Both the position numbers and the translations under genes were made by a program. Positions 6,657-30,478 of a DNA stretch of 64,000 nucleotides are shown here, piece by piece. Source of the DNA: an uncultured bacterium (GTDB lineage: Bacteria; Acidobacteriota; Thermoanaerobaculia; Multivoradales; J023); assembly GCA_965366625.1 (NCBI GenBank), contig CBDUGP010000003.1, positions 50,549-114,548 of the forward strand, read 5' to 3'. The notes under the pieces are model-generated. The model did no database searches, was not told the DNA's origin, and saw only the letters and a list, made by a program, of their open reading frames with translations. How positions within the stretch are numbered: position 1 is the stretch's first letter; the number at the start of each line of letters is the position of its first letter.

Positions 6657-7493
6657 GTGGTTGAACTCAGGATGCGTGACCTGCTCGAAGCAGGTGTCCA
6701 CTTTGGTCATCAGACCCGTCGTTGGAATCCGAAGATGCGTCGGTATATCTTCGGTAAACGCAACGGGATCTACATTATCGATCTGCAAAAGACCTTGCGT
6801 CGCTTCCACGAAGCTGCAGATTTCGTCTTCCGCCTTGGGCGTGATGGTCGGCGCGTGCTTTTCGTAGGCACCAAACGCCAAGCCCAAGAAGCGATTACCC
6901 AAGAAGCCAGGCGTTGCGGCCAGTTTTACGTCACTCACCGTTGGTTGGGGGGTACCCTGACCAACTATGTGACCATCCGCAACTCCGTCGACCGCTTGAA
7001 AGAGATCGAAGGGAAAATGGACGATGAGTCCACTCCTTTGATCAAAAAAGAGCGACTGCGTCTCGATCGCGAGCGCACGAAGCTGGACCGCAATCTCTCG
7101 GGTATCCGGGATATGGGCGGTTTGCCGGACGCGATCTTCATTGTCGACCCGAAGCGGGAAGCCATCGCGGTGGCCGAAGCCAATAAGCTGGGCATTCCCG
7201 TGATCGCGATCGTGGACACCAACTGCGATCCGGAGTTGGTGGACTATGTGATTCCCGGCAACGACGATGCGATTCGCACGATTCGTCTATTCTCTCGCAA
7301 GATCGCCGATGCATATCTCGCCGGCGCAGGAAAGCTGCAGGAAGAACAGATGATCGCCGGCAAGGATGCTCCTGCCGCGAAGCCTGCTGAGGCTGCACCG
7401 GTAGCAGCTGCTCCTGCTGAGCCGAAAGCGACTCCGAAAGCCGAAGAAGCTCCGGCGGCAGCGGCAGACGAGGCCGTCGCAGCACCGGAATAA
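6657..7493 (+). CDS. rpsB: 30S ribosomal protein S2 (with Ala/Pro-rich C-terminal extension)
   Basis: [19 protein letters not shown] signature; GTG at 6657 preceded by GGGAG; only 13 nt after rpsI stop. Confidence 0.9.
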
Positions 7494-7789
7494 GCGCAGG
7501 GGAAGCTATCGAATCGATCGGCCATCGAGGCCGTTTGGGAAGAGGTCAGACCGGCTTAAGATACGGTCTGGCCTCTTTGCATGTATATAGATATAGAAAA
7601 ACCGAGAAATCCCGTGAGCACCCACGATGTGGATTCGGCAAACGCCGATAAACCTGCAGGTCTCCTTGTTCGCAGATCTTCGATGATCTCATCGAGCTTC
7701 GATCCGACAGGTCCAATACGTTGCCTGGGTGAAATACGAGATAGCTGGGACGAAATCCAAGACGAGAATTGCCCGAGAAGGAGATAAAA

Positions 7790-8443
7790 ATGCAAATCAC
7801 CGCTCAGATGGTGAAAGAGCTTCGTGAGCGCACCAGCGCCGGCATGATGGACTGTAAGAAAGTGCTGCAAGAGTCCGAAGGCGATATGGAGAAGGCCGTC
7901 GACTTGTTGCGCAAGAAAGGTCTTGCTGCGGCCGAGAAGAAAGCCGGGCGAGTGGCGGCCGAGGGTGCCGTTGGTTCTTATATCCACGGAAACGGCTCGA
8001 TCGGTGTGTTGGTCGAAGTCAATTGCGAGACCGACTTCGTTGCTCGCACCGAAGACTTCCAGGGCCTGGTCAAAGATATCGCCATGCACATTGCCGCCGC
8101 GGACCCCGCCTTTGTTCGACGGGAAGAAGTCACCGCTTCCATTCTTGAAAAGGAAGCGGAGATCTACGCCGAGCAGATGCGCGCCGAAGGCAAGCCCGAG
8201 AAGATCATTCCAAACATCGTCAAGGGCAAGATCGAGAAGTACTACTCCGAGGCCTGCTTGCTCGAGCAGCCTTTCATCAAAGATTCGGACAAAACCGTCC
8301 AGCAAATGATCACCGAGAAAGTTGCGAAGATCGGCGAGAACATCCAAGTGCGACGTTTCGCTCGTTTCAAGCTCGGCGAAGGAATCGAGAAGAAGCAGGA
8401 AGATTTCGCCGCCGAGGTGGCGGCGCAAGTGGCTGGTAAGTGA
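7790..8443 (+). CDS. tsf: elongation factor Ts
   Basis: [29 protein letters not shown]... UBA-like N-terminus of EF-Ts; ATG 7790 with GAAGGAGA RBS. Confidence 0.9.
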
Positions 8444-8451
8444 GCCGGCCC

Positions 8452-9171
8452 ATGAGCGGTGATCTCGCCTACCGTCGGGTCCTGCTGAAGCTCTCCGGTG
8501 AGGCCCTGATGGGCGATAAAGGCTTCGGCCTCGATGAGGTCGTGGTCAATCAGATCGCGGACGAGCTGAAAGAGGTCTACAAGCTAGGTGTGCAGCTGTC
8601 GGTAGTCATCGGTGGCGGCAATATCGTTAGAGGGTTGGCAGTAGCAAAGCAAGGTATGGATCGTGTAACCGGCGACCACATGGGAATGCTGGCGACGGTG
8701 ATTAATGCCTTGGCGCTACAGGATGCGCTTGAACGCCGTAATGTGGTGACTCGAGTGCAGACCGCGATCGAGATCAAGGAGGTGGCGGAGTCCTATATTC
8801 GCCGTCGAGCCGTCAGGCATCTCGAGCGTGGGCGGGTGGTGATTTTCGGAGCCGGAACAGGCAACCCGTTCTTCACCACCGATAGCGCCGCCGCTCTTCG
8901 GTCCAGCGAGGTGAAGGCCGAGATCCTGCTCAAGGCCACCAAAGTGACGGGAATCTACAGCGCGGATCCGATGAAGGATCCCGATGCGGAACTCTTGCCG
9001 GAGGTGACATATCAACAGGTGCTGGAGCAGAACTTGCAGTTCATGGATGCCGCAGCCATCAGCTTATGCCGCGAGAACAACATTCCGATCCAGCTCTTCG
9101 ACTTGGCTATCAAAGGCAATATTTTGAGAGTTTTGCACGGTGAAAAGGTCGGATCTCGAGTTCGCGGTTGA
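8452..9171 (+). CDS. pyrH: UMP kinase
   Basis: [10 protein letters not shown] ... [10 protein letters not shown] ... [12 protein letters not shown]; alternative GTG start at 8440 overlapping tsf stop. Confidence 0.88.
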
Positions 9172-9358
9172 CTCACAGGATAGGTAGCAGCTCGGCTTTG
9201 CCGGCAAGGGAGGCGATGAGTAATGCTCGTCGCCTCTTTTCGCGTACAGGAGGCTGGGTCTACGTTGACAGTCAGAGCTTAGCGGGAGAGGATTCGCACA
9301 TCGACACGACCTACCCAGTCGAATTTCCCAGTCGAACGATTTGCTTCAAGGAGTTGTT

Positions 9359-9913
9359 ATGAAAGAGGTCTTCCGCGAAGTTGAGGATCAGATGAAAAAG
9401 GCGGTAGAGCATCTTCACCACGAGCTCAAGACTTTGCGCACGGGCCGCGCCTCGATCGCGATTTTGGATGGAGTTCAAGTCGAATACTACGGCACGCCGA
9501 CGCCGCTCAATCAGGTGGCGAATCTGTCGGTCGCCGATGCTCATCTGTTGACGGCACACCCGTGGGAACCGAGCATGATCGGCCCGATTGAAAAGGCCCT
9601 TCAAACCTCAGGTCTCGGCTTGAACCCCTCGAACGACGGCAAGGTTGTACGGATTCCGATCCCGATGCTGACCGAGGAAAGACGCAAGGAGATGGCGCGC
9701 AAAGCCCATGACATCGCCGAGAGCAGCCGAAACGGCGTTCGCCAGGCCCGTCGGGAGGGAAACGATCAGCTGAAGAAGCTGGAGAAGGATAAGAAGATCA
9801 GCCAGGACGACGAGCATCGGGGATTTGATGAAATCCAGAAGCTTCATGACCACTACATCGAGGAGATGAACAAGATTCTGGCCACTAAAGAGAAGGACAT
9901 CATGGAGGTCTAA
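9359..9913 (+). CDS. frr: ribosome recycling factor
   Basis: 185-aa ORF from ATG 9359 (RBS AAGGAG); RRF motifs (LRTGRASIAILDGVQVEYYG ... IPIPMLTEERRKEM). Confidence 0.9.
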   Translation: MKEVFREVEDQMKKAVEHLHHELKTLRTGRASIAILDGVQVEYYGTPTPLNQVANLSVADAHLLTAHPWEPSMIGPIEKALQTSGLGLNPSNDGKVVRIPIPMLTEERRKEMARKAHDIAESSRNGVRQARREGNDQLKKLEKDKKISQDDEHRGFDEIQKLHDHYIEEMNKILATKEKDIMEV

Positions 9914-9933
9914 AGACCTTTCCTGAGCATTCC

Positions 9934-10665
9934 ATGTTGGATCTTCCCAATCGACGGCAAGTTTTTGGCTTCCATCCTGTCCGTGAGCTGCTTCGGCATC
10001 GACCCCAAGAGGTTCTTGAGGTCGTTTGTAGCGCGCAGCGAGGCAAGCGCCGATCCGAGATCGAAGCCCTGTGTGAACGGCACGGTGTTGGGTTCAGGCC
10101 GGTGCCGGCCACTCAGTTGGACCAAATGGCCGCCGGGCAAACCCATAATGGTTTTGTCGCCGCCGCCGCCGAACAAGCATCGGCGACTCCGAATGGGCCG
10201 GATTCAGAGCTTCTAGTTTTGGTCGAGGATATCCAAGATGCTCGAAACCTAGGGGCTTTGCTGCGGGTTTGCGAAGGTGCCGGGGTGGGCAATGTGATGA
10301 TTCGTGATCGAGGCTCCGCTCCATTGACGGCCGGTGCGATCAAGACCTCTGCCGGAGCGGCAGAATGGCAATCCTTCGAACGAATAACCAATTCTTCGCT
10401 GGAGATAGAACGCCTGAAGGCCGAAGGTTTTTGGGTCTACGGGGCGGACGCCGCCGGCAAGCCTCCGTGGGAGATCGAGCTGACGGGCAAGGTGTTGTTC
10501 TGCGTCGGCGGCGAGTCCGGCGGCCTACGGGAGCGGACGCGAAAAAATTGCGACGAGCTGGTGGGTCTGCCCATGCGTGGTCGGGTCGGATCTCTCAACC
10601 TCGCAACCGCAGCCGCTGCGCTGCTCTATGAGGCAATTCGCCAGCGTTCAATCAGCTCCCAATGA
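9934..10665 (+). CDS. rlmB: TrmH/SpoU-family RNA 2'-O-methyltransferase (RlmB-like)
   Basis: SpoU substrate-binding N-domain and SPOUT motifs (LVLVEDIQDARNLGALLR ... GGESGGL ... GSLNLATAAAALLYE). Confidence 0.7.
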   Translation: MLDLPNRRQVFGFHPVRELLRHRPQEVLEVVCSAQRGKRRSEIEALCERHGVGFRPVPATQLDQMAAGQTHNGFVAAAAEQASATPNGPDSELLVLVEDIQDARNLGALLRVCEGAGVGNVMIRDRGSAPLTAGAIKTSAGAAEWQSFERITNSSLEIERLKAEGFWVYGADAAGKPPWEIELTGKVLFCVGGESGGLRERTRKNCDELVGLPMRGRVGSLNLATAAAALLYEAIRQRSISSQ

Positions 10666-10733
10666 TCCGTTGCCCACCGCCGACCGTGTAGCCGTAGCCG
10701 GTGGAAAGCGTTGAAAAAAGATCAGAAAACGCC

Positions 10734-10762
10734 TTGCGTACCCAAGGCAAGCTGGTTACAAT
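10734..10762 (+). promoter_or_regulatory. sigma70-type promoter for tRNA-tuf transcription unit (TTGCGT-N17-TACAAT) with GC-rich discriminator
   Basis: good -35/-10 with 17-nt spacing ~80 nt upstream of first tRNA; GC-rich stretch after -10 typical of stringently controlled stable-RNA promoters. Confidence 0.5.
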
Positions 10763-10843
10763 CCGTCCTCCGCCGGGCGCTGCATCGTAGCGTGACAGGT
10801 GCGACCGCGAAAGCTCTGGGTGGCAACACCTGCCGACGGACTG

Positions 10844-10919
<76 letters not shown>

Positions 10920-10957
10920 TCAGTCGGTGATTCCCCGGAATTGCGGGAAGATTTCGT

Positions 10958-11043
10958 GGAGGTGTGGCCGAGTGGACAAAGGCAGCAGACTGTAAATCTG
11001 CCCGCGAATGCGTACGGTGGTTCGAATCCACCCGCCTCCACCA
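10958..11043 (+). tRNA. tRNA-Tyr (anticodon GTA)
   Basis: 86-nt with long variable arm; anticodon loop ACTGTAAATC; TTCGAAT T-loop; encoded CCA. Confidence 0.9.
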
Positions 11044-11094
11044 ATAATTTCAAGCGGCTGCCAGCCGTCGACGGCTGGTTGGATTGGCCGAAAT

Positions 11095-11169
11095 GCGGGA
11101 GTAACTCAGGGGTAGAGTCACAGCCTTCCAAGCTGTTGGTCGCGGGTTCGAATCCCGTCTCCCGCTCCA
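11095..11169 (+). tRNA. tRNA-Gly (anticodon TCC)
   Basis: 75-nt GCGGGAGTAACTCAGGGGTAGAG...; anticodon loop CTTCCAA; TTCGAAT T-loop; encoded CCA. Confidence 0.9.
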
Positions 11170-11377
11170 TCTTTGCGAGTTAGAGGCGAGCTGGCGATAG
11201 CCCGTTCGCAGCTCACCGTAGACATGCGCGGCACTCTTTTGGTAGGGTCGCCGCCCTCTGCGTAGCTGTGAACTCAACGGCGTCGGTTTAGCCCGACTCT
11301 CCACAGAGTTCACGATTTGAAGAAAGTTTTCGGTAAGGCACGGCGTAGCCGTCCACCGGAGAGGTGTCAAGTTTCAA

Positions 11378-11452
<75 letters not shown>

Positions 11453-11551
11453 TGAAACTCTAGGTCGATCTACCTAGGAACCCTGTTTAGAACACCATCC
11501 CGAGCGATCCATGTAATTGTGGTGCCGCTCTTGAGGAGGCGTCTGAAGGTC

Positions 11552-12736
11552 ATGGCCAAAGAAAAGTTCGAGCGGAATAAGCCGCACGTCAACATCGGTA
11601 CTATTGGTCACGTCGACCACGGAAAGACCACCCTGACCGCTGCGATCACCAAGGTGCTCGCAGACAAAGGTCTGGCTGACTTTACCGCGTTCGACAACAT
11701 CGATAAGGCGCCGGAAGAGCGTGAGCGTGGAATTACGATCGCCACGGCCCATGTGGAGTATGAGACGGAAAACCGTCACTATGCCCACGTGGATTGCCCG
11801 GGCCACGCCGACTACGTGAAGAACATGATCACCGGTGCCGCCCAGATGGACGGCGCGATCCTGGTCGTGTCTGCCGCGGACGGTCCAATGCCGCAGACCC
11901 GCGAGCACATCTTGTTGGCTCGCCAGGTCGGTGTTCCGGCGTTGGTTGTGTTCATGAACAAATGCGACATGGTCGACGATGAGGAGTTGTTGGAGCTGGT
12001 GGAGATGGAGCTGCGTGAGCTGCTGTCGTCTTACGAGTATCCCGGCGACGATATCCCGGTGATTCGCGGCTCGGCGCTCAACGCGCTGAACGGCGAGGGT
12101 GATTGGGACAACAACATCATGGAACTCATGGGTGCAGTCGACGACTACATTCCAGAGCCCGAGCGTGTGTTGGATCAAGACTTCCTGATGCCGATCGAGG
12201 ATATCTTCTCGATTCAGGGTCGCGGTACGGTAGTTACGGGTCGCATCGAACGCGGCATCGTCAAGGTCGGTGAGACGGTCGAAATCGTTGGAATCCGCGA
12301 CACGACGAAAACTACCGTGACCGGCGTCGAGATGTTCCGCAAGTTGCTGGACGAGGGTCGCGCAGGCGACAATGTCGGCATCTTGCTGCGTGGCACGAAG
12401 AAAGACGACGTGGAACGTGGGCAAGTGCTCGCGAAGCCGGGTTCGATCAATCCTCACACGAAGTTCAAGGGCGAGGTGTACGTGCTGACGAAGGAAGAGG
12501 GTGGTCGTCACACTCCGTTCTTCAACGGCTATCGTCCCCAGTTCTATTTCCGCACGACAGATGTGACGGGTTCTTCGGCTTTGCCCGAAGGCACCGAGAT
12601 GGTGATGCCCGGAGACAACGTAAATATGTCGGTGGAGCTGATCGCTCCAATCGCAATGGAGAAGGGTGTTCGCTTCGCCATTCGCGAGGGTGGTCGCACC
12701 ATCGGTGCGGGCACTGTGACCGAGATCGTCGAATAA
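11552..12736 (+). CDS. tuf: elongation factor Tu (copy 1)
   Basis: 394-aa EF-Tu ([22 protein letters not shown]); ATG 11552; protein identical to copy 2 at 28944..30128. Confidence 0.95.
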
Positions 12737-12838
12737 GGTTGACGCCTGAACCTCGACGTTTTTCCCGCTTCCGCGACATGGACGCGGTAAGCACGTGCCC
12801 GAGGGCTCCGATAGGACCTTCGGGCATCCAAGTTATGT

Positions 12839-12914
12839 ACGGCAGTAGCTCAATTGGTAGAGCACCGGTCTCCAAAACCGGCGGTTGCGGGTTCAAGTCC
12901 CTCCTGCCGTGCCA
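12839..12914 (+). tRNA. tRNA-Trp (anticodon CCA)
   Basis: 76-nt ACGGCAGTAGCTCAATTGGTAGAGC...; anticodon loop CTCCAAA; one C-U mismatch in T-stem; classic tuf-tRNATrp-secE-nusG arrangement. Confidence 0.8.
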
Positions 12915-12938
12915 ATTTCGACTTATGAAGTAGGTTCG

Positions 12939-13145
12939 ATGGAAAAGATCAAGTACTTCTTCAACGAATTTCTTCCCGAGGTGAAAGCCGAATGGAAGAA
13001 AGTCACCACTCCGAATGCACAAGAGGTCACCCAGACCACAATCGTAGTGGTGGTGACCAGCTTCATTTTCGCTGTTTACCTCTGGTTGGCGGATGCCGCC
13101 ATCCAGTGGACCTACGAGAAGTTGTTCCAGGTTTTAGGTCTGTAA
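12939..13145 (+). CDS. secE: preprotein translocase subunit SecE
   Basis: 68-aa single-TM protein (VTQTTIVVVVTSFIFAVYLWLADAAI); ATG 12939; ORF track start 12885 runs into tRNA-Trp. Confidence 0.85.
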   Translation: MEKIKYFFNEFLPEVKAEWKKVTTPNAQEVTQTTIVVVVTSFIFAVYLWLADAAIQWTYEKLFQVLGL

Positions 13146-13678
13146 TGTCCGCCAAGCAATGGTACATCGTCCACACGTACTCCGGATTCGAGGAGAGGGT
13201 GGGTGAAACGCTCAAACAGCGCGCAGAAGCGTTGGACATGGCGGATGCCTTTGGCGAGGTGAGGATTCCGACCGAGACCATCGTCGAACTCAAAGGTGGG
13301 AAAAAGCGCGAGACTCAGCGCAAATTTTTCCCAGGCTATATTCTCGTCGAAATGGAAATGTCCGACCCGGCCTGGCATGTGGTGAAGAACACCCCGAAGG
13401 TCACAGGTTTCGTAGGAACGGGTAAGAAGCCCACTCCCTTGACGCAGGAGGACGTTGATCGAATTCTCGATCAAGTCACCTCGGCAAAGGAGAAGCCGAA
13501 ACCCAAATACGTGTTTGAGAAAGGTGAGCCGGTCAAGATCATTGACGGTCCTTTCAGCAACTTTACTGGTGTCGTGGAAGAGGTAAATCTCGACCGCGAT
13601 ACGCTGAAAGTGATGGTTACGATCTTCGGACGCCAAACGCCGGTCGAGCTGAACTTCCTTCAAGTTGAGAAGCTCTGA
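13145..13678 (+). CDS. nusG: transcription termination/antitermination factor NusG
   Basis: NGN domain (WYIVHTYSGFEERV) and KOW (GEPVKIIDGPFSNFTGVVEEV); ATG overlaps secE stop (TAATG). Confidence 0.9.
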   Translation: MSAKQWYIVHTYSGFEERVGETLKQRAEALDMADAFGEVRIPTETIVELKGGKKRETQRKFFPGYILVEMEMSDPAWHVVKNTPKVTGFVGTGKKPTPLTQEDVDRILDQVTSAKEKPKPKYVFEKGEPVKIIDGPFSNFTGVVEEVNLDRDTLKVMVTIFGRQTPVELNFLQVEKL

Positions 13679-13744
13679 CCAGAGCTCTAACGGGAGGGGA
13701 TCCGGTTCATCCGAGATCTCCGTCTGTACCGAGAGAGGCAATTA

Positions 13745-14170
13745 ATGGCAAAGAAAGTCGTCGGACAAATTAAGTTGCAGATTCCCGGCGGCCAAGCAAC
13801 CCCAGCTCCGCCCGTGGGTCCGGCGTTGGGTCAGGCAGGAGTCAATATTATGGACTTCTGTAAGGCCTTTAACGCTCGTACCCAGGAACACATGGGCACG
13901 ATCATCCCGGTGGTTATCACGGTTTACGCTGACCGCACCTATTCTTTCATTACCAAAACACCGCCCGCGGCCGTGTTGTTGATGAAAGCGGCCGGGCTCC
14001 AGAAGGGGTCCGGAGTTCCCAACCGAAATAAGGTGGGTAAGGTGACGTCAGCGCAGGTCGAAGAAATCGCCAAGACCAAAATGCCCGATCTCAACGCAGC
14101 TTCTGTTGAAGCCGCGATGCGGACCATCGCTGGAACAGCTCGTTCCATGGGTCTAGAGGTCGAGGGCTGA
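13745..14170 (+). CDS. rplK: 50S ribosomal protein L11
   Basis: [27 protein letters not shown] signature. Confidence 0.92.
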
Positions 14171-14185
14171 TCGGGGAGGTTTGGT

Positions 14186-14887
14186 ATGGCTAGGAAAACA
14201 AAAAATCATCGCAAGATAGCCGAAAAGGTGGAAGACCGTCCCTATGAGCTCGCGGAAGCGATCAAGCTCTTGCAAGACGTCAGCTACACCAAATTCGACC
14301 AGACCCTGGAGATCGCGCTCAATTTGGGTGTCGATCCAAAGCATGCGGACCAAATGGTCCGCGGAACGGTCGTTCTACCCCACGGCACAGGCCGCACGGT
14401 CCGCATCTTAGTTTTCGCCAGTGGCGAAAAAATCAAAGAAGCGGAAGAGGCCGGCGCCGATCACGTGGGTGGTGACGACTTGGCAAAGAAAATCCAGGAT
14501 GGTTGGGTCGATTTCGACGCGGTTATCGCGACCCCCGACATGATGCGGGTGGTCGGTCGACTTGGCAGAGTCCTCGGTCCACGTGGTTTGATGCCCAATC
14601 CAAAATCGGGCACCGTGACCATGGATGTGACCAAGGCGATCAACGACATCAAGGCCGGTAAAGTGGAGTTCCGGGTCGATAAGGCCGGTGTCCTCCACGC
14701 CCCCTTGGGCAAGCTTTCCTTCGACGCGGATAAGCTCCATGCGAACACAGTGAGTCTGGTACAAGCAGTGATGCGCGCCAAACCCGCTGTGGCCAAGGGC
14801 AAATATGTTCAAGGCGTGAGCATCTCCTCTACTATGGGGCCGGGTCTCAGGTTGGACGAAACTGTCCTACAGAGCCTGGAGGCATAG
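14186..14887 (+). CDS. rplA: 50S ribosomal protein L1
   Basis: 233-aa L1 family ([24 protein letters not shown]...). Confidence 0.92.
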
Positions 14888-14891
14888 CACC

Positions 14892-15413
14892 ATGGCAACT
14901 AGAAGCGAAAAGCAAGCGACGATCGAGAGCTATCAAGAAGGTATGGCCTCTGCGCCTCATGCATTCTTGGTCAGCTTCAAGGGCATTACGGTGCCTCAAG
15001 TGACGGAGCTTCGGGACAAGATCCGTGAAAGTGGCGGCAAATATGAGGTGGTCAAAAACACCTTGGCTTTGCGCGCGGTCGAGGGTAAAGGCCTCGAGCA
15101 CTTCAAAGACGAGTTCACGGGTCCCACGGCTGTGGCGTATATCGGAGACGATCCGGTGGCCTTGGCCAAGGCGTTGACCACGTTCCGCAAGGAAGCGCCG
15201 GTCATCGAGTTCAAGGGCGGCTTAGTCGACGGTAAACCCGTCAGCCCCGACGACCTTGAAGATATTGCCAACCTGCCGAGCCGTGAGGAGCTGATCGCCA
15301 AGCTGCTGTTCCTCCTGCAGTCGCCGATCACCAATATGGTCCGCACCTTGGCTGCGATTCCCAAGGGATTCGTGGTGGTGCTCGATCAGATCGCGCAACA
15401 AAAGGAAAGTTGA
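14892..15413 (+). CDS. rplJ: 50S ribosomal protein L10
   Basis: 173-aa L10; starts 4 nt after rplA stop with no intervening L10 leader. Confidence 0.9.
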   Translation: MATRSEKQATIESYQEGMASAPHAFLVSFKGITVPQVTELRDKIRESGGKYEVVKNTLALRAVEGKGLEHFKDEFTGPTAVAYIGDDPVALAKALTTFRKEAPVIEFKGGLVDGKPVSPDDLEDIANLPSREELIAKLLFLLQSPITNMVRTLAAIPKGFVVVLDQIAQQKES

Positions 15414-15530
15414 GCACGAGTTCGGACCCACACACCGTCCTGACACTGTCTGCAATGTCGGCTTGCGCCGATTTCAAGATTGATACGAGACAAGAAGATT
15501 TCGAAGACCGCCTTTCAAGGAGTAGAAGAC

Positions 15531-15908
15531 ATGGCCATCGTGACCGAAGACTTCATCAAGCAAATCGACGAGATGACCGTTCTCGAGCTGAACAATCTCG
15601 TCAAGGCCCTGGAAGATCACTACGGCGTCTCTGCCGCAGCGGTCGCTGTTGCTGCCGGCCCTGCCGGTGGTGGTGGTGATGCCGCCGCGGAAGAGCAGAC
15701 CGAATTCGACGTGGTCATGACCTCGTTCGGTGACAAGAAAATCAACGTCATCAAAGTGGTCCGTTCGATCACCAGCCTTGGCCTGAAAGAGGCTAAGGAA
15801 CTCGTCGAGGGTGTGCCTTCCCCGATCAAGGAAGGTGCCACCAAAGAAGAAGCCGAAGACATCAAGAAGCAGCTTGAAGAAGCCGGCGCTCAAGTCGAGC
15901 TCAAGTAA
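15531..15908 (+). CDS. rplL: 50S ribosomal protein L7/L12
   Basis: N-terminal dimerization domain, Ala/Gly hinge, C-terminal [20 protein letters not shown] domain; ATG 15531. Confidence 0.92.
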
Positions 15909-15930
15909 TTCGGTTTTCCGCACATGCTCG

Positions 15931-15963
15931 ACCACCCTTGAAAAGGGTGGTAAGCTGTTTTTT
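15931..15963 (+). terminator. candidate partial terminator/attenuator between rplL and rpoB
   Basis: hairpin ACCACCC-TTGAAAA-GGGTGGT followed 5 nt later by TTTTTT; 408-nt rplL-rpoB spacer, position analogous to the E. coli rplL-rpoB attenuator. Confidence 0.4.
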
Positions 15964-16316
15964 GAGGCCGTCCTCCATCGGGGCGGTCTCTTTCGAGCAT
16001 TGCGAGACACCGAAACGACCATGTTCCTCAAAACCGCGGCATTGCCGCGGGAGGGACATGGTGTCTTCTATTCTGGAAAGCCGATAGCCACCTACATGCA
16101 TAGTCGCCCCCGAAGAAGGTGAGCTCTTGAAGGATCGCAGCCTCGACTGCCTGGCTAGGTGGGTGAGGACTCGGCAAATGCCCTGCCCACCCTACGAGCT
16201 ATTGACTACAGCACTCCGCCCGAGTCCGGTGAAGGATGACTCGCCGAGTCGTCCCAGGTTTATTCCTACCCGTCCAAGCGGCGCCAAGCTCTTGCCGAAA
16301 GGAGCGTAGAGATTCT

Positions 16317-19300
16317 ATGAGCGAAGGGATCCAAACGCCAATCGCGCCACGCGAAGACTTCTCGCAGATTGAGACCACCCTGCCGATCCCAAATTTGATC
16401 GACGTGCAGCGGCGGTCTTATGAGCGTTTTCTGCAGATGAACCTGTTGCCCGAAGAACGGGGCAACCATGGTCTGCAAGCAGTCTTTACCAGCATCTTCC
16501 CCTTCTCTGATTTCCGGGAGACCTGTTCCCTGGATTTCGTGAAATACACTATCGGTGATTGGCAATGCAAATGCGGAACCCTGCAAGGTCTCGAATACCT
16601 GCGCATGGATTGTTCCAATTGCGGAGCCAAGATCATGACCGACCATCCTCTGGAAGAGGTCGTGTCGTGTCCTGAATGTGGTGCCGACAACAAGAATCGC
16701 GTCGTCCGCTGTGACATCTGTGGCGGCCCTGTCGAGCTACAGTTGAAGTACTCGATTTCGGAATGCCAAGAGCGTGGAATGACCTTCGCGGTGCCGCTCA
16801 AGGTGACATTCCGGCTCTTTGTTTACGACAAGGATCCGGAGACCGGAACGCGCATGATGCGCGATGCGAAAGAAGAAGAGGTCTACTTCGGTGAAATCCC
16901 GTTGATGACCGAGTACGGCACCTTCGTCATCAACGGTACTGAGCGGGTGATCGTCAGTCAGCTACACCGTAGCCCGGGCGTTTTCTTCACCAAGGACGGT
17001 AAGCGCACCTTCCTATCTAAAATTATTCCTTACCGCGGGTCTTGGGTCGAATTCGAATACGACCAAAAAGAGGTGCTTTCGGTCCGTATCGACCGCAAGC
17101 GCAAATTCCACGGCACGGTTTTCCTGCGGGCGTTGGGCCTCGAGTCCAACGAGGCAATTCTGCGCCAATTCTATGTCTCGGTGGGTTTGTCGATCCTAGG
17201 TGAGGGCCGGTACAAGCTCAACGCACCCTTCAAGGTTATCGAGCAAGAGCGTTTGCGTGATCGCTCCAGTCGCGGTGTCCGTCGCCACTACCAAATCTTT
17301 GCCGGAATTTCGATTCCGAAGGAGAAGGCGGATGAGATGGGCGCCGAGGACAACATCGAGCAAGACGTCTCCATGGCGGAACTCGAAAGGGCCTATTTCA
17401 TCGCTGACGTGGTGGACTTGGAGACCGGTGAAATTCTCTTCGAGGCCAACGATCTGGTCCCGGAAGATTTGGAGACTCGCCTCGACGGCCGTGACACCAC
17501 GGATCTGGAGGTCTTTTTCCCGGATTGGGAGCTGACCGGCAATCTCTTGACCAACACCTTGACCAAGGATCAAACGCGGAATTCCAAAGAAGCGTTGATG
17601 GAGATTTATCGCCGGATGCGTCCCGGAGATCCTCCTACCCTTGAGAGTGCTCGGTCACTGTTCTACGGCATGTTCTTCGATGCCAAGCGCTACGACTTCT
17701 CGCGTGTCGGCCGGTTCAAGTTCAACATTAAGCTCGACACCGAAGTTCCGGTGGAGCAGAAGACCCTCTCTGCCGACGACTTCTACCGTGTGATCGAGTA
17801 CTTGCTCCGACTGCACAAAGACATCGGCCGGGTCGACGACATCGACAACCTCGGTAACCGTCGTGTTCGAGCCGTGGGTGAGCTGTTGGAGAACCAATTC
17901 CGCATTGGTCTGGTTCGCATGGAAAGGGCCATCAAGGAAAAGATGTCCGTGCATCAGGACATCGACTCCGCTATGCCTCACGATTTGATCAACTCTAAGC
18001 CGGTAATTGCCGCGATCAAAGAGTTCTTCGGCTCGTCGCAGCTGTCTCAGTTCATGGATCAGACCAATCCCTTGTCGGAGGTGACCCACAAACGCCGTCT
18101 CTCCGCTCTGGGACCGGGTGGTCTCTCCCGTGAGCGGGCCGGCTTCGAGGTGCGTGACGTTCACGCCTCCCACTACGGTCGAATCTGCCCGATTGAGACC
18201 CCTGAGGGACCGAACATCGGCTTGATTTCTTCCCTGGCAACCTTCGCTCGCATCAACGATTACGGCTTTATCGAGAGTCCGTATAAGTTGGTGCAAGGCG
18301 GCCGGGTCTTGGATCACTTCCGGGTGGTTCGTACCGGCGGCTCGAATAAGAGGTTGGGACAGGTGCTCACCGGTGACGACCTGAAAGAGGTCAACGGTCA
18401 GCTGAAGAAGGACGGCAAGCGGCTGATCGAGGTCGAGCCTCACGCCTTCTACCTGACCGCATGGGAAGAAGAGAAATACGTCATCGCTCAGGCGAATGCC
18501 ACCGTCGACGAAAACGGTTGGTTCCATGACGAGCGAGTGATCGCCCGGTCCGGGGGTGATTTCATCACCGTTGAACGCGAGCGCGTGGAATACATGGATA
18601 TCAGCCCGAAGCAGTTGGTTTCGGTGGCAGCGGCGCTGATTCCTTTCCTTGAGCATGATGACGCCAACCGGGCGCTCATGGGCTCCAACATGCAGCGCCA
18701 AGCCGTGCCTTTGTTGCGAAGTGACTCGCCGGTGGTAGGTACGGGGCTCGAAGGCACGGTAGCTCGGGATTCCGGTGCCGTGGTCAGCGTTCGTCGAGCG
18801 GGCATGGTCGATCTGGTCGACGCGGAGCGCATCATCGTGCGCGTCGAGGCCGAGGACGATCAAACCGGTGAGGCGAAGGACTTCGGTGCTGATATCTACC
18901 AGCTGACGAAGTTCCGTCGGTCGAACCAAAACACTTGCATCAACCAAAAGCCCATCGTCAAAGAAGGGCAGAGGGTGAGCAAGGGTGATGTGCTGGCGGA
19001 CGGCCCCTGTACTGAACTCGGTGAACTCGCTCTGGGTCGCAACGTGCTGGTGGCGTTTATGCCTTGGCGTGGATACAACTTCGAGGATGCGATTTTGATC
19101 TCCGAGAAGATGGTCAAGGAGGACTACTACACCTCTATCCATATCGAGGAATTCGAAATTGAAGCTCGGGATACCAAGTTGGGACCGGAAGAAGTAACCC
19201 GCGACATCCCCAATGTGTCCGAGGCTGCGCTCAAGGACCTCGACGAGTCGGGTATCGTTCGGATCGGCGCCAACGTCAAAGCGGGCGATATCTTGGTCGG

Positions 19301-20570
19301 CAAGGTCACGCCGAAGGGCGAGACCCAGCTGACGCCTGAAGAAAAGCTGTTGCGCGCCATCTTCGGTGAAAAAGCCGGTGACGTTCGCGACGCCTCCCTG
19401 AAGGTTCCGCCCGGCATCGATGGCACGGTAGTAGACGTCAAGATCTTCTCGCGCAAGGGCGTGGAGAAGGATCAACGTGCGCTCGAGATCGAGGATGCGG
19501 AAATCTCCCGGATGAAGAAAAACATCAAGGATGAGATTCGCATTCTGACCGAAGAGCGGAACAAGAAGATTCGCGACCTGCTCGACGGCCACGAAGCTAT
19601 GGCTGATGTGGTCAATCGGGACGGTGAGACCGTGCTTCAAAAAGGTGACAAGGTCAGCCATGACGCCTTGATGAAGCTAAATCGCCAAGAGATTCTTCGT
19701 CTGCCTCTCAAGGGCAACTCGGTCCACGAGCAGGTAGAGAAGGTCTATCGCAAGACCGACTCCCACATCGATGTCCTGCACAAGGTCAACGAGGAACGGG
19801 TGGCGCTGTTGCAAAAAGGCGACGAGCTACCCCCGGGCGTGATCAAGTTGGTGAAAGTCTTCGTCGCCATGAAGCGTAAGCTCCAGGTGGGCGACAAGAT
19901 GGCCGGACGTCACGGTAACAAAGGTGTGATCTCGCGGATTCTTCCCGAGGAAGACATGCCTTACCTGCCCGACGGCACGCCAGTAGAGATCGTGCTCAAC
20001 CCCTTGGGTGTTCCCAGTCGTATGAACGTTGGGCAGATCTTGGAAACCCATCTCGGTTGGGCGGGTATGGCCCTAGGGGTGAAATTCGCCACACCGGTCT
20101 TCGACGGCGCTAGCGAGGAATCCTTGAAGGGATTCTTGGTTCAAGCGGGTTTGCCGACTTCTGGAAAAACCCAGCTGTATGACGGCATGACCGGTGAGCA
20201 GCTGGAGAACCAAGTCACCGTCGGATACATCTATATGTTGAAGTTGTCTCATTTGGTAGACGACAAGATTCACGCTCGTTCCATCGGGCCGTACTCGTTG
20301 ATTACCCAGCAACCATTGGGCGGTAAAGCGCAATTCGGTGGTCAGCGTTTCGGTGAGATGGAGGTCTGGGCCCTAGAAGCCTACGGCGCGGCGTACACTC
20401 TTCAAGAGTTGCTCACCGTCAAATCGGATGATGTCGAAGGCCGTTCCAAGGTCTATGAGTCCATCGTGAAGGGAGCAGTTCCGGACGATCCGGGTCTCCC
20501 CGAATCGTTCAACGTGTTGGTACGTGAGCTTCAAAGCTTGTGCCTTGACGTCGAGCTCTTGCAGGCCTGA
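16317..20570 (+). CDS. rpoB: DNA-directed RNA polymerase subunit beta (with Cys-rich insertion near N-terminus)
   Basis: 1417-aa RpoB (ATG 16317, GGAG RBS); conserved blocks throughout; ~66-aa insertion with four CxxC/CxC pairs at residues ~82-147. Confidence 0.95.
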
Positions 20571-20601
20571 TCCGGATATTCGAAAATCGAAGGAGGCACC
20601 T

Positions 20602-23600
20602 TTGCAGCCAGTCAACTTTTTCGAGAAGCCCCAGTCGTTGAAAGATTTCAACGCGATCCGGATCTCTGTCGCATCACCTGAAAAGATCGGTGCGTGGAGC
20701 TACGGTGAGGTAACGAAAGCAGAAACCATCAACTACCGCACCTTCAAACCGGAGCGGGACGGTCTCTTCTGCGCCAAAATTTTCGGTCCGATCACGGACT
20801 GGGAATGCTTGTGCGGAAAATACAAACGCATGAAACACCGCGGTGTGGTGTGCGACAAATGTGGAGTCGAGGTGACTCGCTCCAAAGTTCGCCGTGAGCG
20901 GATGGGTCACATCCAACTCGCCAGCCCGGTCTCCCATGTTTGGTTCTTCAAGGGCCTGCCGAGTCGCATCGGCCATTTGTTGGACCTCTCTCTGCGGGAC
21001 CTGGAGCGGATTCTCTACTTTGAAAGCTACGTCGTCATCGATCCCGGTGATACGGAGCTGAAAGAGAACGAGCTGCTCTCCGAAGAGCGTTATCGCGAGC
21101 TACGGGACGAGTACGGTGAGGATGCTTTCGAGGCTCGCATGGGCGCGGAGGCGATCAAAGATCTGCTGTCACGCATCGACCTTGACGAGCTGGCGGAAGA
21201 GCTACGTATCGTCATGAAAACCGATACGAGCCAGATCCGTCGCCTCAAGGCCGCCAAACGTCTTAAAGTAATCGACGCCTTCCGTCGCTCCGGTCATCGC
21301 CCGGAGTGGATGATCCTGGAAGTGATTCCGGTCATTCCGCCGGAGCTTCGGCCGTTGGTGCCTTTGGACGGTGGCCGTTTTGCCACTTCGGACTTGAACG
21401 ACCTATACCGACGGGTCATCAACCGAAACAATCGCTTGAAGAAACTGCTCGAGCTACGTGCGCCCGAAGTCATCGTGCGCAATGAGAAGCGCATGCTTCA
21501 AGAGGCGGTGGACGCGCTGTTCGACAATGGTCGTCGGGGCCGCGTGCTCAAGGGATCCAACAATCGACCTTTGAAATCGTTGTCCGACACCCTCAAGGGC
21601 AAGCAGGGGCGTTTCCGACAAAACCTGTTGGGCAAACGTGTCGATTACTCCGGTCGTTCCGTGATCGTCGTCGGTCCGGAGCTGCGCCTGAGCCAATGTG
21701 GTTTGCCCAAGAAGATGGCCCTGGAGCTGTTCAAACCGTTCATTTATAACCGTCTCGAGGATAAGGGTTTGGTGGGCACCATCAAGGCCGCTAAAGAGAT
21801 GGTTGAGCGAGAAGAAGACGCCGTTTGGGACGCCTTAGAAGAAGTGATTCAGGATCACCCGGTGTTGCTCAATCGCGCACCTACCCTGCATCGCCTCGGG
21901 ATTCAAGCGTTCCAGCCGACCCTGATCGAAGGTAAAGCGATTCAGATCCATCCGTTGGTTTGTGCGGCGTTCAACGCCGATTTCGACGGTGATCAGATGG
22001 CGGTCCACGTGCCGCTGTCGCCGAAGGCACAAATCGAATCCAAGATTCTAATGTTGGCTTCGAACAACCTTCTGTCACCGGCCAACGGCAAGCCGTTGGC
22101 GGTTCCCAGTCAAGATTTGGTCTTGGGTGGTTATTACCTAACCCTGGAAAAAACTGGATCCCTGGGCGAGGGCCGGCTCTTCCCGGACTTCGACTCGGTG
22201 CTTTTGGCGCTGCACGCCGAAGATGTCGAGACCCAGACTCGAATCAAGGTTCGCTACACGGGTGATCTGATCGATCTGACCAAGCAGTACAACGATCAAG
22301 ACGTAGTTCACGCCGAAATGGAAGACGTGCGCAACACCTTGATCGACACCACAGTCGGTCGCGTGATTTTCAATATGCAGCTGCCCGACGAGATGCCGTT
22401 CATCAACGGTTTGCTCAAGAAGAAGGGCTTGCAGAATTTGGTGAGCTACTCGTTCATCCGTTTCGGTAACGACAAGACCGTGACGATGCTCGACGAAATG
22501 AAGGAGATCTCCTTCTTCTACGCCACCAAGGCCGGTATTTCCATCGGCATTGACGACATGGTTGTGCCGTCGACGAAGATCGAGATTATCGACACCGCCC
22601 GTAACGAGGTGGTGGAGATCGAGAAGCAGCGCACCGCGGGTGTGATCACCGCCGGCGAGCGCCACAACAAAATCATCGATATCTGGCACCGTGTGACCGA
22701 GAACGTCTCCGAGGAAATGTTCAAGGAGATGTCGAGAGAAGAGCAAATCAGCAACGTCTTCAATCCGATTCGCGTGATGGCAGATTCGGGCGCCCGTGGC
22801 TCTCGTGAGCAGGTGCGCCAGTTGGCCGGTATGCGTGGTTTGATGTCGAAACCTTCTGGTGAGGTGATCGAAACGCCGATTACCTCCAATTTCCGCGAAG
22901 GCTTGACGGTGTTGCAGTACTTCATTTCCACCCATGGCGCTCGAAAGGGTTTGGCGGATACTGCGTTGAAAACCGCGGACTCCGGTTACTTGACCCGCCG
23001 CTTGGTGGACGTGGCCCAGGACGTGATCGTCTCTGAGGACGACTGTGGCACCATCGACGGTATTTACGTGTCGGCGATCATGGAGGGTGGAGACATTCTC
23101 GAGCCGTTGCGCGATCGCATCGTCGGTCGGGTGAGCCAGGAAGAGATCTACGATCCCATGACCGGAGAGCTACTCCTGGGTCTGGCCGAGGAGATCACCG
23201 TCGAGATGGGGGCGAAGGTCCAAGAGGCCGGCATCGAGCGGGTGAAAATCCGGTCGGTGCTCACCTGTGAGTCGCGCCGGGGCGTCTGCATCAAATGTTA
23301 CGGCCGCAACCTGGCCACTGGTAAGACGGTCGACATTGGTGAGGCTGTTGGCGTTATCGCTGCACAGTCGATCGGTGAGCCGGGAACCCAGCTGACCATG
23401 CGTACCTTCCACTATGGTGGTACCGCAAGCCGCGTCTCGGAGGAGTCGAAGCACGCTTCGCGCAATGCCGGTACGGTGAAGTTCATCAACGTGTCTACCG
23501 TCGATTCCAAAGACGGCGCCTTGGTGGTCGTCAACCGTAACGGCAAGATCGTGTTGATGGACCCCAAGGGTCGTGAACTCGAGCGCTACGCAGTGACTTA

Positions 23601-24786
23601 CGGCTCACATCTCCAAGTGCGGGAGGGGCAAGAGGTCGAGCCGGGCACCGAGTTGGTGATATGGGATCCCTTCACCTCTGCGGTTCTGACCGAAATCGCG
23701 GGTCAAGTGGAGTTTCAGGACATCGTCGAAGGCGAGAATGTCCGCGAGGAGACCGATAGGGTCACGGGTCTCTCCCAACGGATCATCGTTGAGGCGTCGG
23801 CAAACGAGAAACGTGCACCTGCAATCGTCATCAAAGGCGACGGCACGGAGCGACGTTATTTGCTTCCGTCTGGCTCCCACTTGGTGGTCGGAGACGGGCA
23901 AAAGGTTTACCCCGGCGACACGCTGGTCAAGATCCCGCGCGAAACCACGAAAACCAAGGACATCACGGGTGGTTTGCCTCGGGTGGTCGAGCTGTTTGAA
24001 GCACGTACACCAAAAGAGCCGGCGATCATTTCCGAGATCGACGGCACGGTGCGATTGGGCGACATTCACAAAGGCATGCGTAAAGTGCTGGTGGAGTCGG
24101 ATCACAACGAGGTTCGGGAATACCTGGTTCCACGCTATATCCATGTCAACGTGCAAGACGGCGAGCGAGTGCGAGCCGGCGAGCCGTTGATCGACGGTCC
24201 GATCAACCCGCACGATGTTCTGACCGTGCTGGGCGAGAAGGAGCTGCAGCGATACTTGGTCGACAAGATTCAAGAGGTCTATCGCTCCCAATCGGTGGCC
24301 ATCAACGACAAGCACATCGAGGTGATCGTTCGCCAAATGATGCGCTCGGTGAAAATCGAGGAAGTGGGAGATACCAACTTTCTTATCGACGAGCAGGTGG
24401 ATCGGTTCCGCTTCCAAGAAGAGAACGAACGTGTGGTGGTCGCCGGCGGACGCCCGGCCATCGGACGCCCGCTGCTCTTGGGTATTACGAAGGCGTCGCT
24501 GTCGACCGACAGCTTCATCTCCGCGGCTTCCTTCCAGGAAACCACTAGGGTGCTCACCGAAGCTGCGATCAGCGGTAAGGTGGACTACCTGCGTGGTCTG
24601 AAGGAAAATGTGATTGTCGGCCGATTGATCCCAGCTGGAACGGGTCTGCACCACTACCATGATTTCCACATGGAAGAAGAGACGTACCAGGACGACAACC
24701 TGAACGAGGACGAGGAGCTTTACCTCCAATTCCGCGAGGAAGACATCAGGTCGTTGCCGGCCGGCGCTACCGCTAGTAAAGACTGA
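20602..24786 (+). CDS. rpoC: DNA-directed RNA polymerase subunit beta'
   Basis: 1394-aa RpoC; TTG start at 20602 with AAGGAGG RBS 5 nt upstream; canonical Zn-binding [20 protein letters not shown] and NADFDGD catalytic motif. Confidence 0.95.
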
Positions 24787-24972: not shown

Positions 24973-25332
24973 TCAATGGACGGTACCTGGAGAATGCTGA
25001 GAAGGGTCTTCCTCGAAGCCGTGGGTCATGACGAAGGCATAGGCGGCAAATCGTTCGGTGGGTCCTTCCGCGATGGCCTCGAAGACGTGCTCACCCTCGC
25101 GCTCTTCGCCCAAGTCCTGCACGTAGGAAATATGTTCCGGCGAGATCAAAAGCTCGGCCATCATCCTCTTGCCCTTGAGCATTTGAGCTACCAGGTCCTC
25201 TTGAGCGGGACCGATATACCAATGGCAATCGTCATCGTCGTAAACTGCAGCGTCCGGCGTAGATACACGGACAATGCAATTCGGATGCAGCTGGAGCCAA
25301 GCCCAGAATTGGTCGAAAGGGATCGTCGTCAT
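24973..25332 (-). CDS. hypothetical protein (119 aa, acidic, no recognisable domain)
   Basis: clean ORF antisense to the ribosomal superoperon, inserted between rpoC terminator and rpsL promoter. Confidence 0.45.
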   Translation of the reverse strand: MTTIPFDQFWAWLQLHPNCIVRVSTPDAAVYDDDDCHWYIGPAQEDLVAQMLKGKRMMAELLISPEHISYVQDLGEEREGEHVFEAIAEGPTERFAAYAFVMTHGFEEDPSQHSPGTVH

Positions 25333-25570
25333 GGATCGAACCTACCAAGGTCCGGCCCGCAGGAAAACCCCCTTAGCCAATTGGTCCGATGGTTAGGCTG
25401 ACAGGCCGATGCCTGCGAAAGACAGAAAACCTCAGAAAACCTCCTCGAAAGCCTTGGCAGAACCGGGTGGTTCGGTTACCATACGGATCTCACAGCGGCG
25501 CCCTCTGCGCCGTAAGAAAAAACGAGATCGTCACCTCAAATCGATGCAAAGTCGGTTTTGAGAAAAAAGC

Positions 25571-25798: not shown

Positions 25799-26173
25799 AT
25801 GCCGACGATTCATCAGCTGGTGCGCAAAGGGCGCGTCCGCCAAAAGGCGAAGACTAAGAGTCCAGCCCTCCAGTCCTGTCCGCAGCGACGTGGTGTTTGC
25901 GTTCGCGTATACACGCAGACGCCCAAGAAGCCGAATTCGGCTCTGCGCAAAGTTGCCCGTGTGCGTCTGACCAACGGAATTGAGGTCACAACCTACATTC
26001 CCGGTGTCGGGCACAACCTTCAAGAGCACTCGATCGTTTTGGTCCGAGGTGGTCGTGTGAAGGATCTTCCGGGTGTTCGTTACCACGTGGTTCGTGGCAC
26101 CCTAGACGCAGTAGGCGTCGACGGTCGCCGTCAAGGACGCTCCAAATACGGGGCCAAGCGGCCCAAGGGCTGA
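25799..26173 (+). CDS. rpsL: 30S ribosomal protein S12
   Basis: [12 protein letters not shown] ... [19 protein letters not shown] signature. Confidence 0.95.
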
Positions 26174-26683: not shown

Positions 26684-26819
26684 GCCCAGTTCTTTAGCTT
26701 TAGCAACGCTCTTAATAGCGTTTCAAAATAGACGGCAGCCGCAGAGCGGTAGAAAGCTGTCAGCGGATTCCCCCTGAGCCGATAGATTGCCGGGATGGAT
26801 TCCGCACGGAGCACGAGTC

Positions 26820-28895
<2,076 letters not shown>

Positions 28896-28943
28896 CGGAG
28901 TTAACAATTTCCTAGGATTTCCAACGATTCCTCGGAGGAAGAG

Positions 28944-30128
28944 ATGGCAAAAGAAAAGTTCGAGCGGAATAAACCGCACGTCAACATTGGCACCATTGGT
29001 CACGTCGACCACGGAAAGACTACCCTGACCGCCGCGATCACCAAGGTGCTCGCAGACAAAGGTCTGGCTGACTTCACCGCGTTCGACAACATCGATAAGG
29101 CGCCGGAAGAGCGCGAGCGTGGAATCACGATCGCTACGGCTCACGTAGAGTACGAGACGGAAAATCGTCACTATGCTCACGTGGACTGTCCGGGTCACGC
29201 CGATTACGTGAAAAATATGATCACCGGTGCCGCCCAAATGGACGGCGCGATCTTGGTGGTCTCGGCTGCGGACGGTCCTATGCCGCAGACCCGTGAGCAC
29301 ATCTTGCTGGCCCGCCAAGTGGGCGTTCCGGCGTTGGTTGTGTTCATGAACAAATGCGACATGGTCGACGATGAGGAGTTGTTGGAGCTGGTGGAGATGG
29401 AGCTGCGTGAGCTGCTGTCGTCTTACGAGTATCCCGGCGACGATATCCCGGTGATTCGCGGCTCGGCGCTCAACGCGCTGAACGGCGAGGGTGATTGGGA
29501 CAACAACATCATGGAACTCATGGGTGCAGTCGACGACTACATTCCAGAGCCCGAGCGTGTGTTGGATCAAGACTTCCTGATGCCGATCGAGGATATCTTC
29601 TCGATTCAGGGTCGCGGTACGGTAGTTACGGGTCGCATCGAACGCGGCATCGTCAAGGTCGGTGAGACGGTCGAAATCGTTGGAATCCGCGACACGACGA
29701 AAACTACCGTGACCGGCGTCGAGATGTTCCGCAAGTTGCTGGACGAGGGTCGCGCAGGCGACAATGTCGGCATCTTGCTGCGTGGCACGAAGAAAGACGA
29801 CGTGGAACGTGGGCAAGTGCTCGCGAAGCCGGGTTCGATCAATCCTCACACGAAGTTCAAGGGCGAGGTGTACGTGCTGACGAAGGAGGAGGGTGGTCGA
29901 CACACTCCGTTCTTCAACGGTTATCGTCCTCAGTTCTACTTCCGTACGACGGATGTGACGGGTTCTTCGGCTCTGCCCGAAGGCACCGAGATGGTGATGC
30001 CCGGGGACAACGTAAATATGTCGGTGGAGCTGATCGCTCCTATCGCCATGGAGAAGGGTGTTCGCTTCGCGATCCGCGAAGGTGGCCGCACGATTGGTGC
30101 GGGCACTGTGACCGAGATCGTTGAGTGA
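28944..30128 (+). CDS. tuf: elongation factor Tu (copy 2)
   Basis: 394-aa protein identical to copy 1; nucleotide sequence diverged at synonymous sites in first ~380 and last ~240 nt, identical in the central 563 nt. Confidence 0.95.
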
Positions 30129-30169: not shown

Positions 30170-30478
30170 ATGGTCAACGAGAAGATCCGTATCCGGCTCA
30201 AAGCCTTCGATTACCGAATCTTGGATACTTCGGCGAATGAGATTGTCGACACGGCTCGACGCACTGGTGCAAAAGTGGTGGGTCCTATTCCGCTGCCGAC
30301 GCACATCTCTCGCTACACCGTGAATCGCTCGCCGCATGTAGACAAGAAGTCGCGAGAGCAATTCGAAATCCGCACCCACAAACGCCTGCTCGACATCTAC
30401 GAGTCCACCAGCCACACGGTTGATGCACTCATGAAACTCGAGCTTCCGGCTGGAGTGGACGTGGAGATCAAGCTCTGA
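30170..30478 (+). CDS. rpsJ: 30S ribosomal protein S10
   Basis: [29 protein letters not shown] signature. Confidence 0.95.

Follow-up and report, generated by a model that had tools for sequence, protein, structure and literature searches.

We analyzed a 64-kb stretch of DNA (64,000 nt; referred to here as the window) from a soil Acidobacteriota species that is uncultured. The window contains two tuf genes (Table 1), each an ORF of 1185 nt, with a start-to-start distance of 17,392 nt from copy 1 to copy 2. Pfam matches to GTP_EFTU (PF00009, 2.3e-66), D2 (PF03144, 2.3e-20), and D3 (PF03143, 7.7e-40) identified the products as EF-Tu. Copy 1 occupies a neighborhood in the order tRNAs-tuf-tRNA-Trp-secE-nusG-rplK-rplA-rplJ-rplL-rpoB-rpoC. 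Copy 2 is the final gene of rpsL-rpsG-fusA-tuf and is followed by rpsJ and the S10 operon, with Pfam matches to S12, S7, and EF-G upstream and to S10 downstream. The segment separating the two copies encodes tRNA-Trp, secE, nusG, rplK, rplA, rplJ, rplL, rpoB, rpoC, an unassigned 141-aa ORF, rpsL, rpsG, and fusA.

Table 1. Positions of the two tuf copies, their segments, and neighboring features in the window
Feature	Position	Strand	Description	Source
tRNA cluster Thr(TGT)-Tyr(GTA)-Gly(TCC)-Thr(GGT)	10844..11452	+	5' of tuf copy 1	ARAGORN, Rfam
tuf copy 1 (tufB-equivalent)	11552..12736	+	394-aa EF-Tu, stop TAA	ORF translation, Pfam
5' diverged segment, copy 1 (gene nt 1-381)	11552..11932	+	36 synonymous differences, dS 0.59, dN 0	
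Identical tract, copy 1 (gene nt 382-944)	11933..12495	+	563 nt, 100% identical to 29325-29887	
13-SNP sub-block (gene nt 651-793)	12202..12344 and 29594-29736	+	two haplotypes, 13 silent sites, 9.1%	
3' diverged segment, copy 1 (gene nt 945-1185)	12496..12736	+	20 differences including the stop codon, dS 0.40, dN 0	
Inter-repeat segment	12737..28943	+		L001 gene calls, Pfam on window ORFs
tRNA-Trp	12839..12914	+	between tuf copy 1 and secE	ARAGORN
ORF with fusA (EF-G)	26787..28895	+	directly 5' of tuf copy 2	Pfam
tuf copy 2 (tufA-equivalent)	28944..30128	+	394-aa EF-Tu, stop TGA	ORF translation, Pfam
Identical tract, copy 2	29325..29887	+	563 nt, 100% identical to 11933-12495	
rpsJ (S10)	30170..30478	+	3' of tuf copy 2, first in S10 operon	Pfam

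These gene contexts are those of a tufB-type/tufA-type paralog pair, and the arrangement is identical in relatives. The operon contexts of tufB and tufA in enteric bacteria, with the tRNA order thrU-tyrU-glyT-thrT, have been described (PMC6735719), and the contexts in the window are the same, including the order of the tRNAs. Homology between the two copies is limited to the coding sequence (i.e., from ATG to the stop codon), and the flanking sequences are unrelated. The tuf pair is the sole long repeat of the 64-kb window and constitutes its one direct-repeat family; no inverted repeats were found across the window.

Several other features of the locus were recorded. The Thr-Tyr-Gly-Thr tRNA cluster is also present in four related sequences (L084, L086, L001, and L004). 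The cluster is tightly packed except for a 208-nt spacer between tRNA-Gly(TCC) and tRNA-Thr(GGT) (positions 11170-11377), which had no Rfam match; the corresponding spacer measured 208 nt in L001, 234 nt in L084, and 329 nt in L004. Rfam searches around the locus returned five tRNAs only, and a promoter/terminator scan near copy 1 yielded nothing exceeding the shuffled expectation. The spacer between rpoC (ending at 24786) and rpsL (starting at 25799) is unusually long (~1 kb) and contains the 141-aa ORF (24976-25401, + strand), which lacks a Pfam match. Antisense ORFs lie opposite both tuf genes (11474-12511, - strand, 345 aa; 28476-29903, - strand, 475 aa). Long antisense ORFs are frequent artefacts facing GC-rich, codon-biased genes.

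Pairwise alignment of copies 1 and 2 revealed 56 nucleotide differences, comprising 52 at third codon positions, three at first positions (all synonymous Leu/Arg changes), and one in the stop codon. Their distribution was that of a mosaic: 36 differences in nt 1 to 381 of the gene, none in nt 382 to 944, and 20 in nt 945 to 1185. The ends diverged by 9.4% (5') and 8.3% (3'), and identity in sliding 100-nt windows was 88 to 96% in the ends and 100% in the center. Both edges of the central tract were abrupt, with five differences packed into nt 364 to 381 on the 5' side, and nt 945, immediately past the tract, already differing on the 3' side. After the 563-nt tract, the next-longest identical runs between the copies were 41, 38, and 35 nt. 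The absence of nonsynonymous change in the ends (dN = 0) is consistent with strong purifying selection. The original prediction, made from the sequence, had described identical 394-aa proteins, a central block of 563 identical nucleotides, and diverged ends. Translation of both ORFs bore out the first of these points, and alignment reproduced the block to the nucleotide; the sliding-window profile displayed a single contiguous block rather than uniformly spread differences.

We assessed the tract statistically by shuffling the 55 differing codons over the 378 degenerate codons of the gene in 200,000 trials. The longest identical run observed (187 codons) far exceeded the permuted runs (mean, 30; maximum, 91), and none of the 200,000 trials reached 187 codons. 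The flanks have 0.276 differences per degenerate codon; were this rate to hold in the center, its 179 degenerate codons would all be free of differences with a probability of ~7e-26. A chance origin of the 563-nt gap in differences is excluded. The run is longer than expected by permutation, i.e., a contiguous tract as left by interlocus gene conversion.

The exact EF-Tu protein is on record on five NCBI/ENA contigs, the longest of which is 220,565 nt. Three ENA metagenome contigs that encode it, from three other samples, were compared with the window; L001 has the gene context of copy 1, and L002 and L003 have that of copy 2. All three are low-coverage short-read contigs (3-6x), which do not allow a repeat of >500 nt to be phased. 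Their flanks were 99.8 to 100% identical to the window, with L001 aligning to positions 7306-22736 at 99.83% identity and without gaps. The 36 and 20 locus-specific end differences are carried by L001-L003 without any change. The boundaries at nt 381/382 and 944/945 thus recur in all three contigs, and the mosaic is not peculiar to the assembly of the window; being common to all sampled strains, these boundaries are older than the strain divergence.

Strain variation was concentrated inside the otherwise identical tract. Over 15.4 kb, 14 of the 26 mismatches between L001 and the window fell within the 563 nt (background, 0.08%; Poisson P, 1e-16), as did 13 of 15 mismatches for L003 and 2 of 3 for L002, making strain variation ~30-fold denser inside the tract. 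Most of this variation resides in one sub-block with two haplotypes (Table 1; positions 4897-5039 of L001 and 1535-1677 of L003), which is the main strain-level difference over a region of >15 kb that is otherwise 99.9% identical. Both tuf copies of the window have haplotype H1; H2 was found in L001 (copy 1) and L003 (copy 2), which come from different samples. In addition, SNP 876A is shared by L001 (copy 1) and L002 (copy 2). The divergence between H1 and H2 equals that of the unconverted ends, and both haplotypes have derived states; a search for an H2 donor among the sampled lineages found none. It is plausible that the block is leftover paralog divergence that was resolved oppositely in different strains. 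The distribution of variants in the tract suggests ongoing or repeated exchange between the loci, and the sharing of variants across loci may also be an assembly effect or a product of short-read chimeras.

Given that both tuf copies were recovered by assembly, the central identity could be an artefact of assembly or polishing, in which real centers that differ were homogenized by a collapsed-repeat consensus or by mis-mapped reads. Against this explanation, L001-L003, which were assembled independently from three other samples, have the same boundaries and share the central sequence except for one 143-nt block and two SNPs, whereas ~50 differences would be expected at the divergence level of the ends. 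The assembler did separate the copies, since the ends stayed distinct, and homogenization is even more complete in two relatives whose tuf loci lie on contigs of 525 kb and 434 kb, probably long-read assemblies to judge from the contig names. In favor of an artefact, related data contain misassemblies at tuf (i.e., the L088 join and the internal duplications of P0002 and P0010, see below), and a repeat of >500 nt is beyond phasing by short-read contigs. On balance, we consider an artefact very unlikely.

To place the window among its relatives, we used protein searches and contig searches with EF-Tu. The protein search returned thousands of EF-Tu homologs, with 97% identity for the top non-self match, and the closest named relatives were uncultured Acidobacteriota MAGs; no JGI protein in the search was >89% identical to the window EF-Tu. 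The contig matches covered many phyla, the best being 87% identical among the matches listed, and were the source of L004. The nearest relative, P0003 (97% EF-Tu identity), has both tuf loci on one 525-kb contig, 17.3 kb apart. Three genomes with both tuf loci were therefore available for comparison: the window, the P0003 genome, and MAG MFD05684. A further five sequences (P0004, P0005, P0007, P0008, and P0028) with one tuf locus each were used as outgroups and not as within-genome pairs.

The mosaic pattern differed in each of the three genomes. In the window, all 56 paralog differences are at the gene ends. The P0003 paralogs, which encode identical proteins, have 21 scattered differences (6, 12, and 3 across the 5' segment, center, and 3' segment), and the MFD05684 paralogs have nine, seven of which lie in nt 12 to 135. 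Between genomes, the tuf genes differed by at least 122 to 132 nt. In segment trees, the paralogs clustered by genome and not by locus (i.e., the pattern of concerted evolution). The two contexts (tRNAs-tuf-tRNA-Trp-secE and fusA-tuf-rpsJ) were kept in all relatives examined.

The ends were also compared with the outgroups. At the 56 differing sites, seven outgroup sequences matched copy 1 and copy 2 approximately equally, regardless of the locus to which they themselves belong. This even split indicates that the ends of both copies carry derived changes, and an end dS of only 0.4 to 0.6 indicates that the ends are not remnants of the ancient duplication. The possibility that the ends track locus orthology was rejected: across lineages, the stop codon alone follows the locus, and this correspondence is restricted to the three closest lineages. 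Copy 1 terminates in TAA (12734-12736) and copy 2 in TGA (30126-30128), an arrangement shared by the P0003 lineage; L086 likewise has TAA at the end of its copy-1 gene. MFD05684, with TGA in both copies, and L093, with TAA in copy 2, are exceptions. A locus-tracking stop codon fits an escape of the extreme gene end from conversion.

A second alternative is that the copies started out identical and one of them later had its ends replaced with DNA from a sister lineage, on fragments spanning the flanking genes and ending inside tuf. At least two such imports would be required, one per side and both stopping within the gene, and no sampled lineage matches either end (the nearest being 16 to 37 differences away). 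The ~9% end divergence does equal the distance to the nearest sampled lineage, the ancestral/derived test fits in-place divergence and import from a sister lineage alike, and the 13-SNP block shows that short recombined patches happen in the tract; the strain-contig flanks are nevertheless 99.8 to 100% identical to the window, without any mosaic outside tuf. Import of the ends is very improbable, and even under this scenario the initial identical state would still stem from gene conversion.

A third explanation invokes stronger silent-site selection in the center (e.g., on codon usage or mRNA structure), without any transfer of sequence between the copies. EF-Tu is very highly expressed and codon biased, and the first 170 nt of the gene evolve more slowly among paralogs (4.7%) and lineages (4 to 5%) alike. 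Divergence between the window and the P0003 lineage, however, was 10.6 to 16.8% per bin in the center (dS, 0.70 to 0.79) and 4 to 13% per bin in the ends (dS, 0.34 to 0.59); the center is the region that diverges most between lineages. It also contains 14 of the 26 strain SNPs found over 15 kb. In the four end bins, paralog divergence (4.7, 13.3, 7.6, and 8.9%) tracked the between-lineage values bin by bin, while in the center it was 0%, exactly where between-lineage divergence peaks. The fastest-evolving part of the gene is therefore free to change, and something erased the paralog differences there. On the basis of this dS comparison, silent-site constraint fails to explain the identity, as expected if the center has been converted, and we give this explanation almost no weight. 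We also rejected nt 1 to 170 as an older conversion tract: the dip in divergence recurs between lineages and so reflects constraint.

That one tuf copy is a recent or assembly duplicate and not an old paralog, as the identical proteins could suggest, is scarcely credible, because both contexts are conserved in every relative examined and match the enteric tufB/tufA operons, homology ends exactly at the start and stop codons, and the dS of the ends excludes a very recent copy.

The mosaic of the tuf pair is thus very probably the product of interlocus gene conversion within concerted evolution. This agrees with the original prediction of a gene-conversion signature: chance and central constraint are excluded, paralogs group by genome, and the boundaries recur in other strains. 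The prediction had called the conversion recent. Conversion itself is supported, and a single recent event is probably too simple a reading; the boundaries predate the sampled strains, and the variation in the tract suggests repeated events.

In the history that we propose, an ancient tuf pair has been retained, with both genes in the same orientation, and its members evolve in concert by homologous recombination, probably of the non-reciprocal kind. When one copy is broken, it would be repaired off the other copy, and a contiguous stretch would thereby be overwritten. With homology confined to the 1185-nt coding sequence, tracts would begin and finish within the gene, so that the center would be converted most and the ends least. 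The last whole-gene homogenization was probably about contemporary with the split from the P0003 lineage. The ends would since have gained ~9% silent divergence, with amino acids kept unchanged through purifying selection, and the central 563 nt would have been re-homogenized later, probably more than once. Lacking any identical run of >41 nt, the ends are probably poor substrates for strand exchange and may be policed by mismatch repair, which would hold the boundaries sharp and stable.

Several steps of this scheme (i.e., repair of a break, dependence on RecA and mismatch repair, and a self-reinforcing boundary) are carried over from the Salmonella model and would apply here by analogy. In the 1185-nt tuf genes of Salmonella, conversion tracts are >96% contiguous, initiation is approximately uniform along the gene, and extension is processive over ~500 nt in each direction and aborts on reaching the end of homology; the frequency of conversion declines towards the ends of the gene from its middle, and mismatch repair results in shorter tracts and fewer events (PMC5485169). 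Abortion at the end of homology accounts for the residual differences lying mostly or partly at the ends in the three Acidobacteriota genomes. The Paulsson model (PMC5485169) gives a gentle drop, with ~86% of the central rate at nt 362, and no step. A step would require one final event or a barrier set up by divergence. In the window, the sharp edges would accordingly record where the last event or events stopped, or a possible barrier arising from the ~9% divergence of the ends, in which the longest identical run is 41 nt.

The arrangement of the two copies determines the rearrangements that they could mediate. Both are on the + strand, and we detected no inverted tuf orientation as would be needed for inversion of the Salmonella type. 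As direct repeats, the tuf copies would on crossover duplicate or delete the segment from secE to fusA, and deletion would presumably be lethal. The earlier suggestion that the repeat could rearrange the rpoBC segment therefore holds for duplication and not for inversion; duplication or deletion is the repeat-mediated rearrangement to be expected here.

The 563-nt perfect direct repeat sits within a 1.2-kb repeat whose copies are 95% identical, on either side of rpoBC and the ribosomal protein genes used as phylogenetic markers. It had been flagged as an assembly hazard, and related metagenome assemblies provide examples, in which the repeat is a visible source of chimeric contigs and duplicated EF-Tu predictions. 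Positions 1-5941 of L088 (ENA ERZ27264655 k141_199863, assembled with MEGAHIT), whose EF-Tu (P0006) is 93% identical to the window protein, have the order rpsL-rpsG-fusA-tuf-tRNA-Trp-secE-nusG-rplK, i.e., copy-2-type sequence upstream of tuf and copy-1-type sequence downstream. This join of fusA-tuf to secE is more probably a chimera through the tuf repeat than a tandem-duplication junction. Two EF-Tu predictions near the window protein, P0002 (471 aa) and P0010 (491 aa), contain internal duplications (e.g., a 23-residue segment present twice) and probably reflect mixed strains or misassembly across tuf repeats. In this species, strain typing and SNP calling based on tuf would be misled, since most of the local variation lies in the tract, where short reads do not reveal the locus of origin.

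Reports that duplicated tuf genes evolve in concert through gene conversion date back to the 1990s. Abdulkarim & Hughes in 1996 and Hughes in 2000 reportedly described tufA/tufB gene conversion in Salmonella enterica and Escherichia coli, and Lathe & Bork in 2001 and Kondrashov et al. in 2007 are said to have reported that concerted evolution of duplicated tuf genes is long lasting and extends across bacterial phyla.

As in Salmonella and E. coli, the window has two 1185-nt genes with identical proteins, one linked to tRNAs and the other to rpsL-rpsG-fusA; identity is likewise in contiguous tracts, with the center favored and homology ending at the gene borders. The Salmonella genes are inverted and 761 kb apart, and recombination between them inverts the chromosome (PMC6735719). 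In contrast to that ~760-kb separation, the window copies are direct and 17.4 kb apart within one tufB-secE-rpoBC-str-S10 cluster, so that a crossover would duplicate or delete the rpoBC segment instead of inverting the chromosome. The Salmonella copies differ at 12 dispersed sites, whereas those of the window differ at 56, all in the ends. Homogenization by homologous recombination is shared with rRNA operons (PMC8022953), which are also dispersed, highly expressed repeats of the translation apparatus. The rRNA operons are noncoding and multicopy, while the window has two protein-coding copies, in which conversion acts together with purifying selection.

Concerted evolution by interlocus gene conversion is already published for tuf, with Acidobacteria among the six phyla concerned and the copies recognized by their contexts (Wang & Chen 2018, PMC6053082), and the window is another instance. 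The ancient duplication and the two conserved contexts are common to the window and to this phylum-wide pattern. The earlier studies of that group were tree based and addressed whole genes, whereas the window resolves one tract at the nucleotide level and, unlike those studies, is accompanied by strain-level metagenome contigs with variation concentrated in that tract. Its biological weight is small: it is a clean, nucleotide-resolved case of a textbook process in a phylum where the process was already reported. A more far-reaching reading, which we put forward tentatively as possible rather than probable, is that the tuf center is a zone shared between the two loci in wild strains, with two-way conversion inside fixed boundaries. 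If true, concerted evolution in this species would be stable and domain limited, with two-way conversion observable in nature, and the locus would offer a natural system in which to estimate the ratio of conversion rate to mutation rate in an uncultured bacterium.
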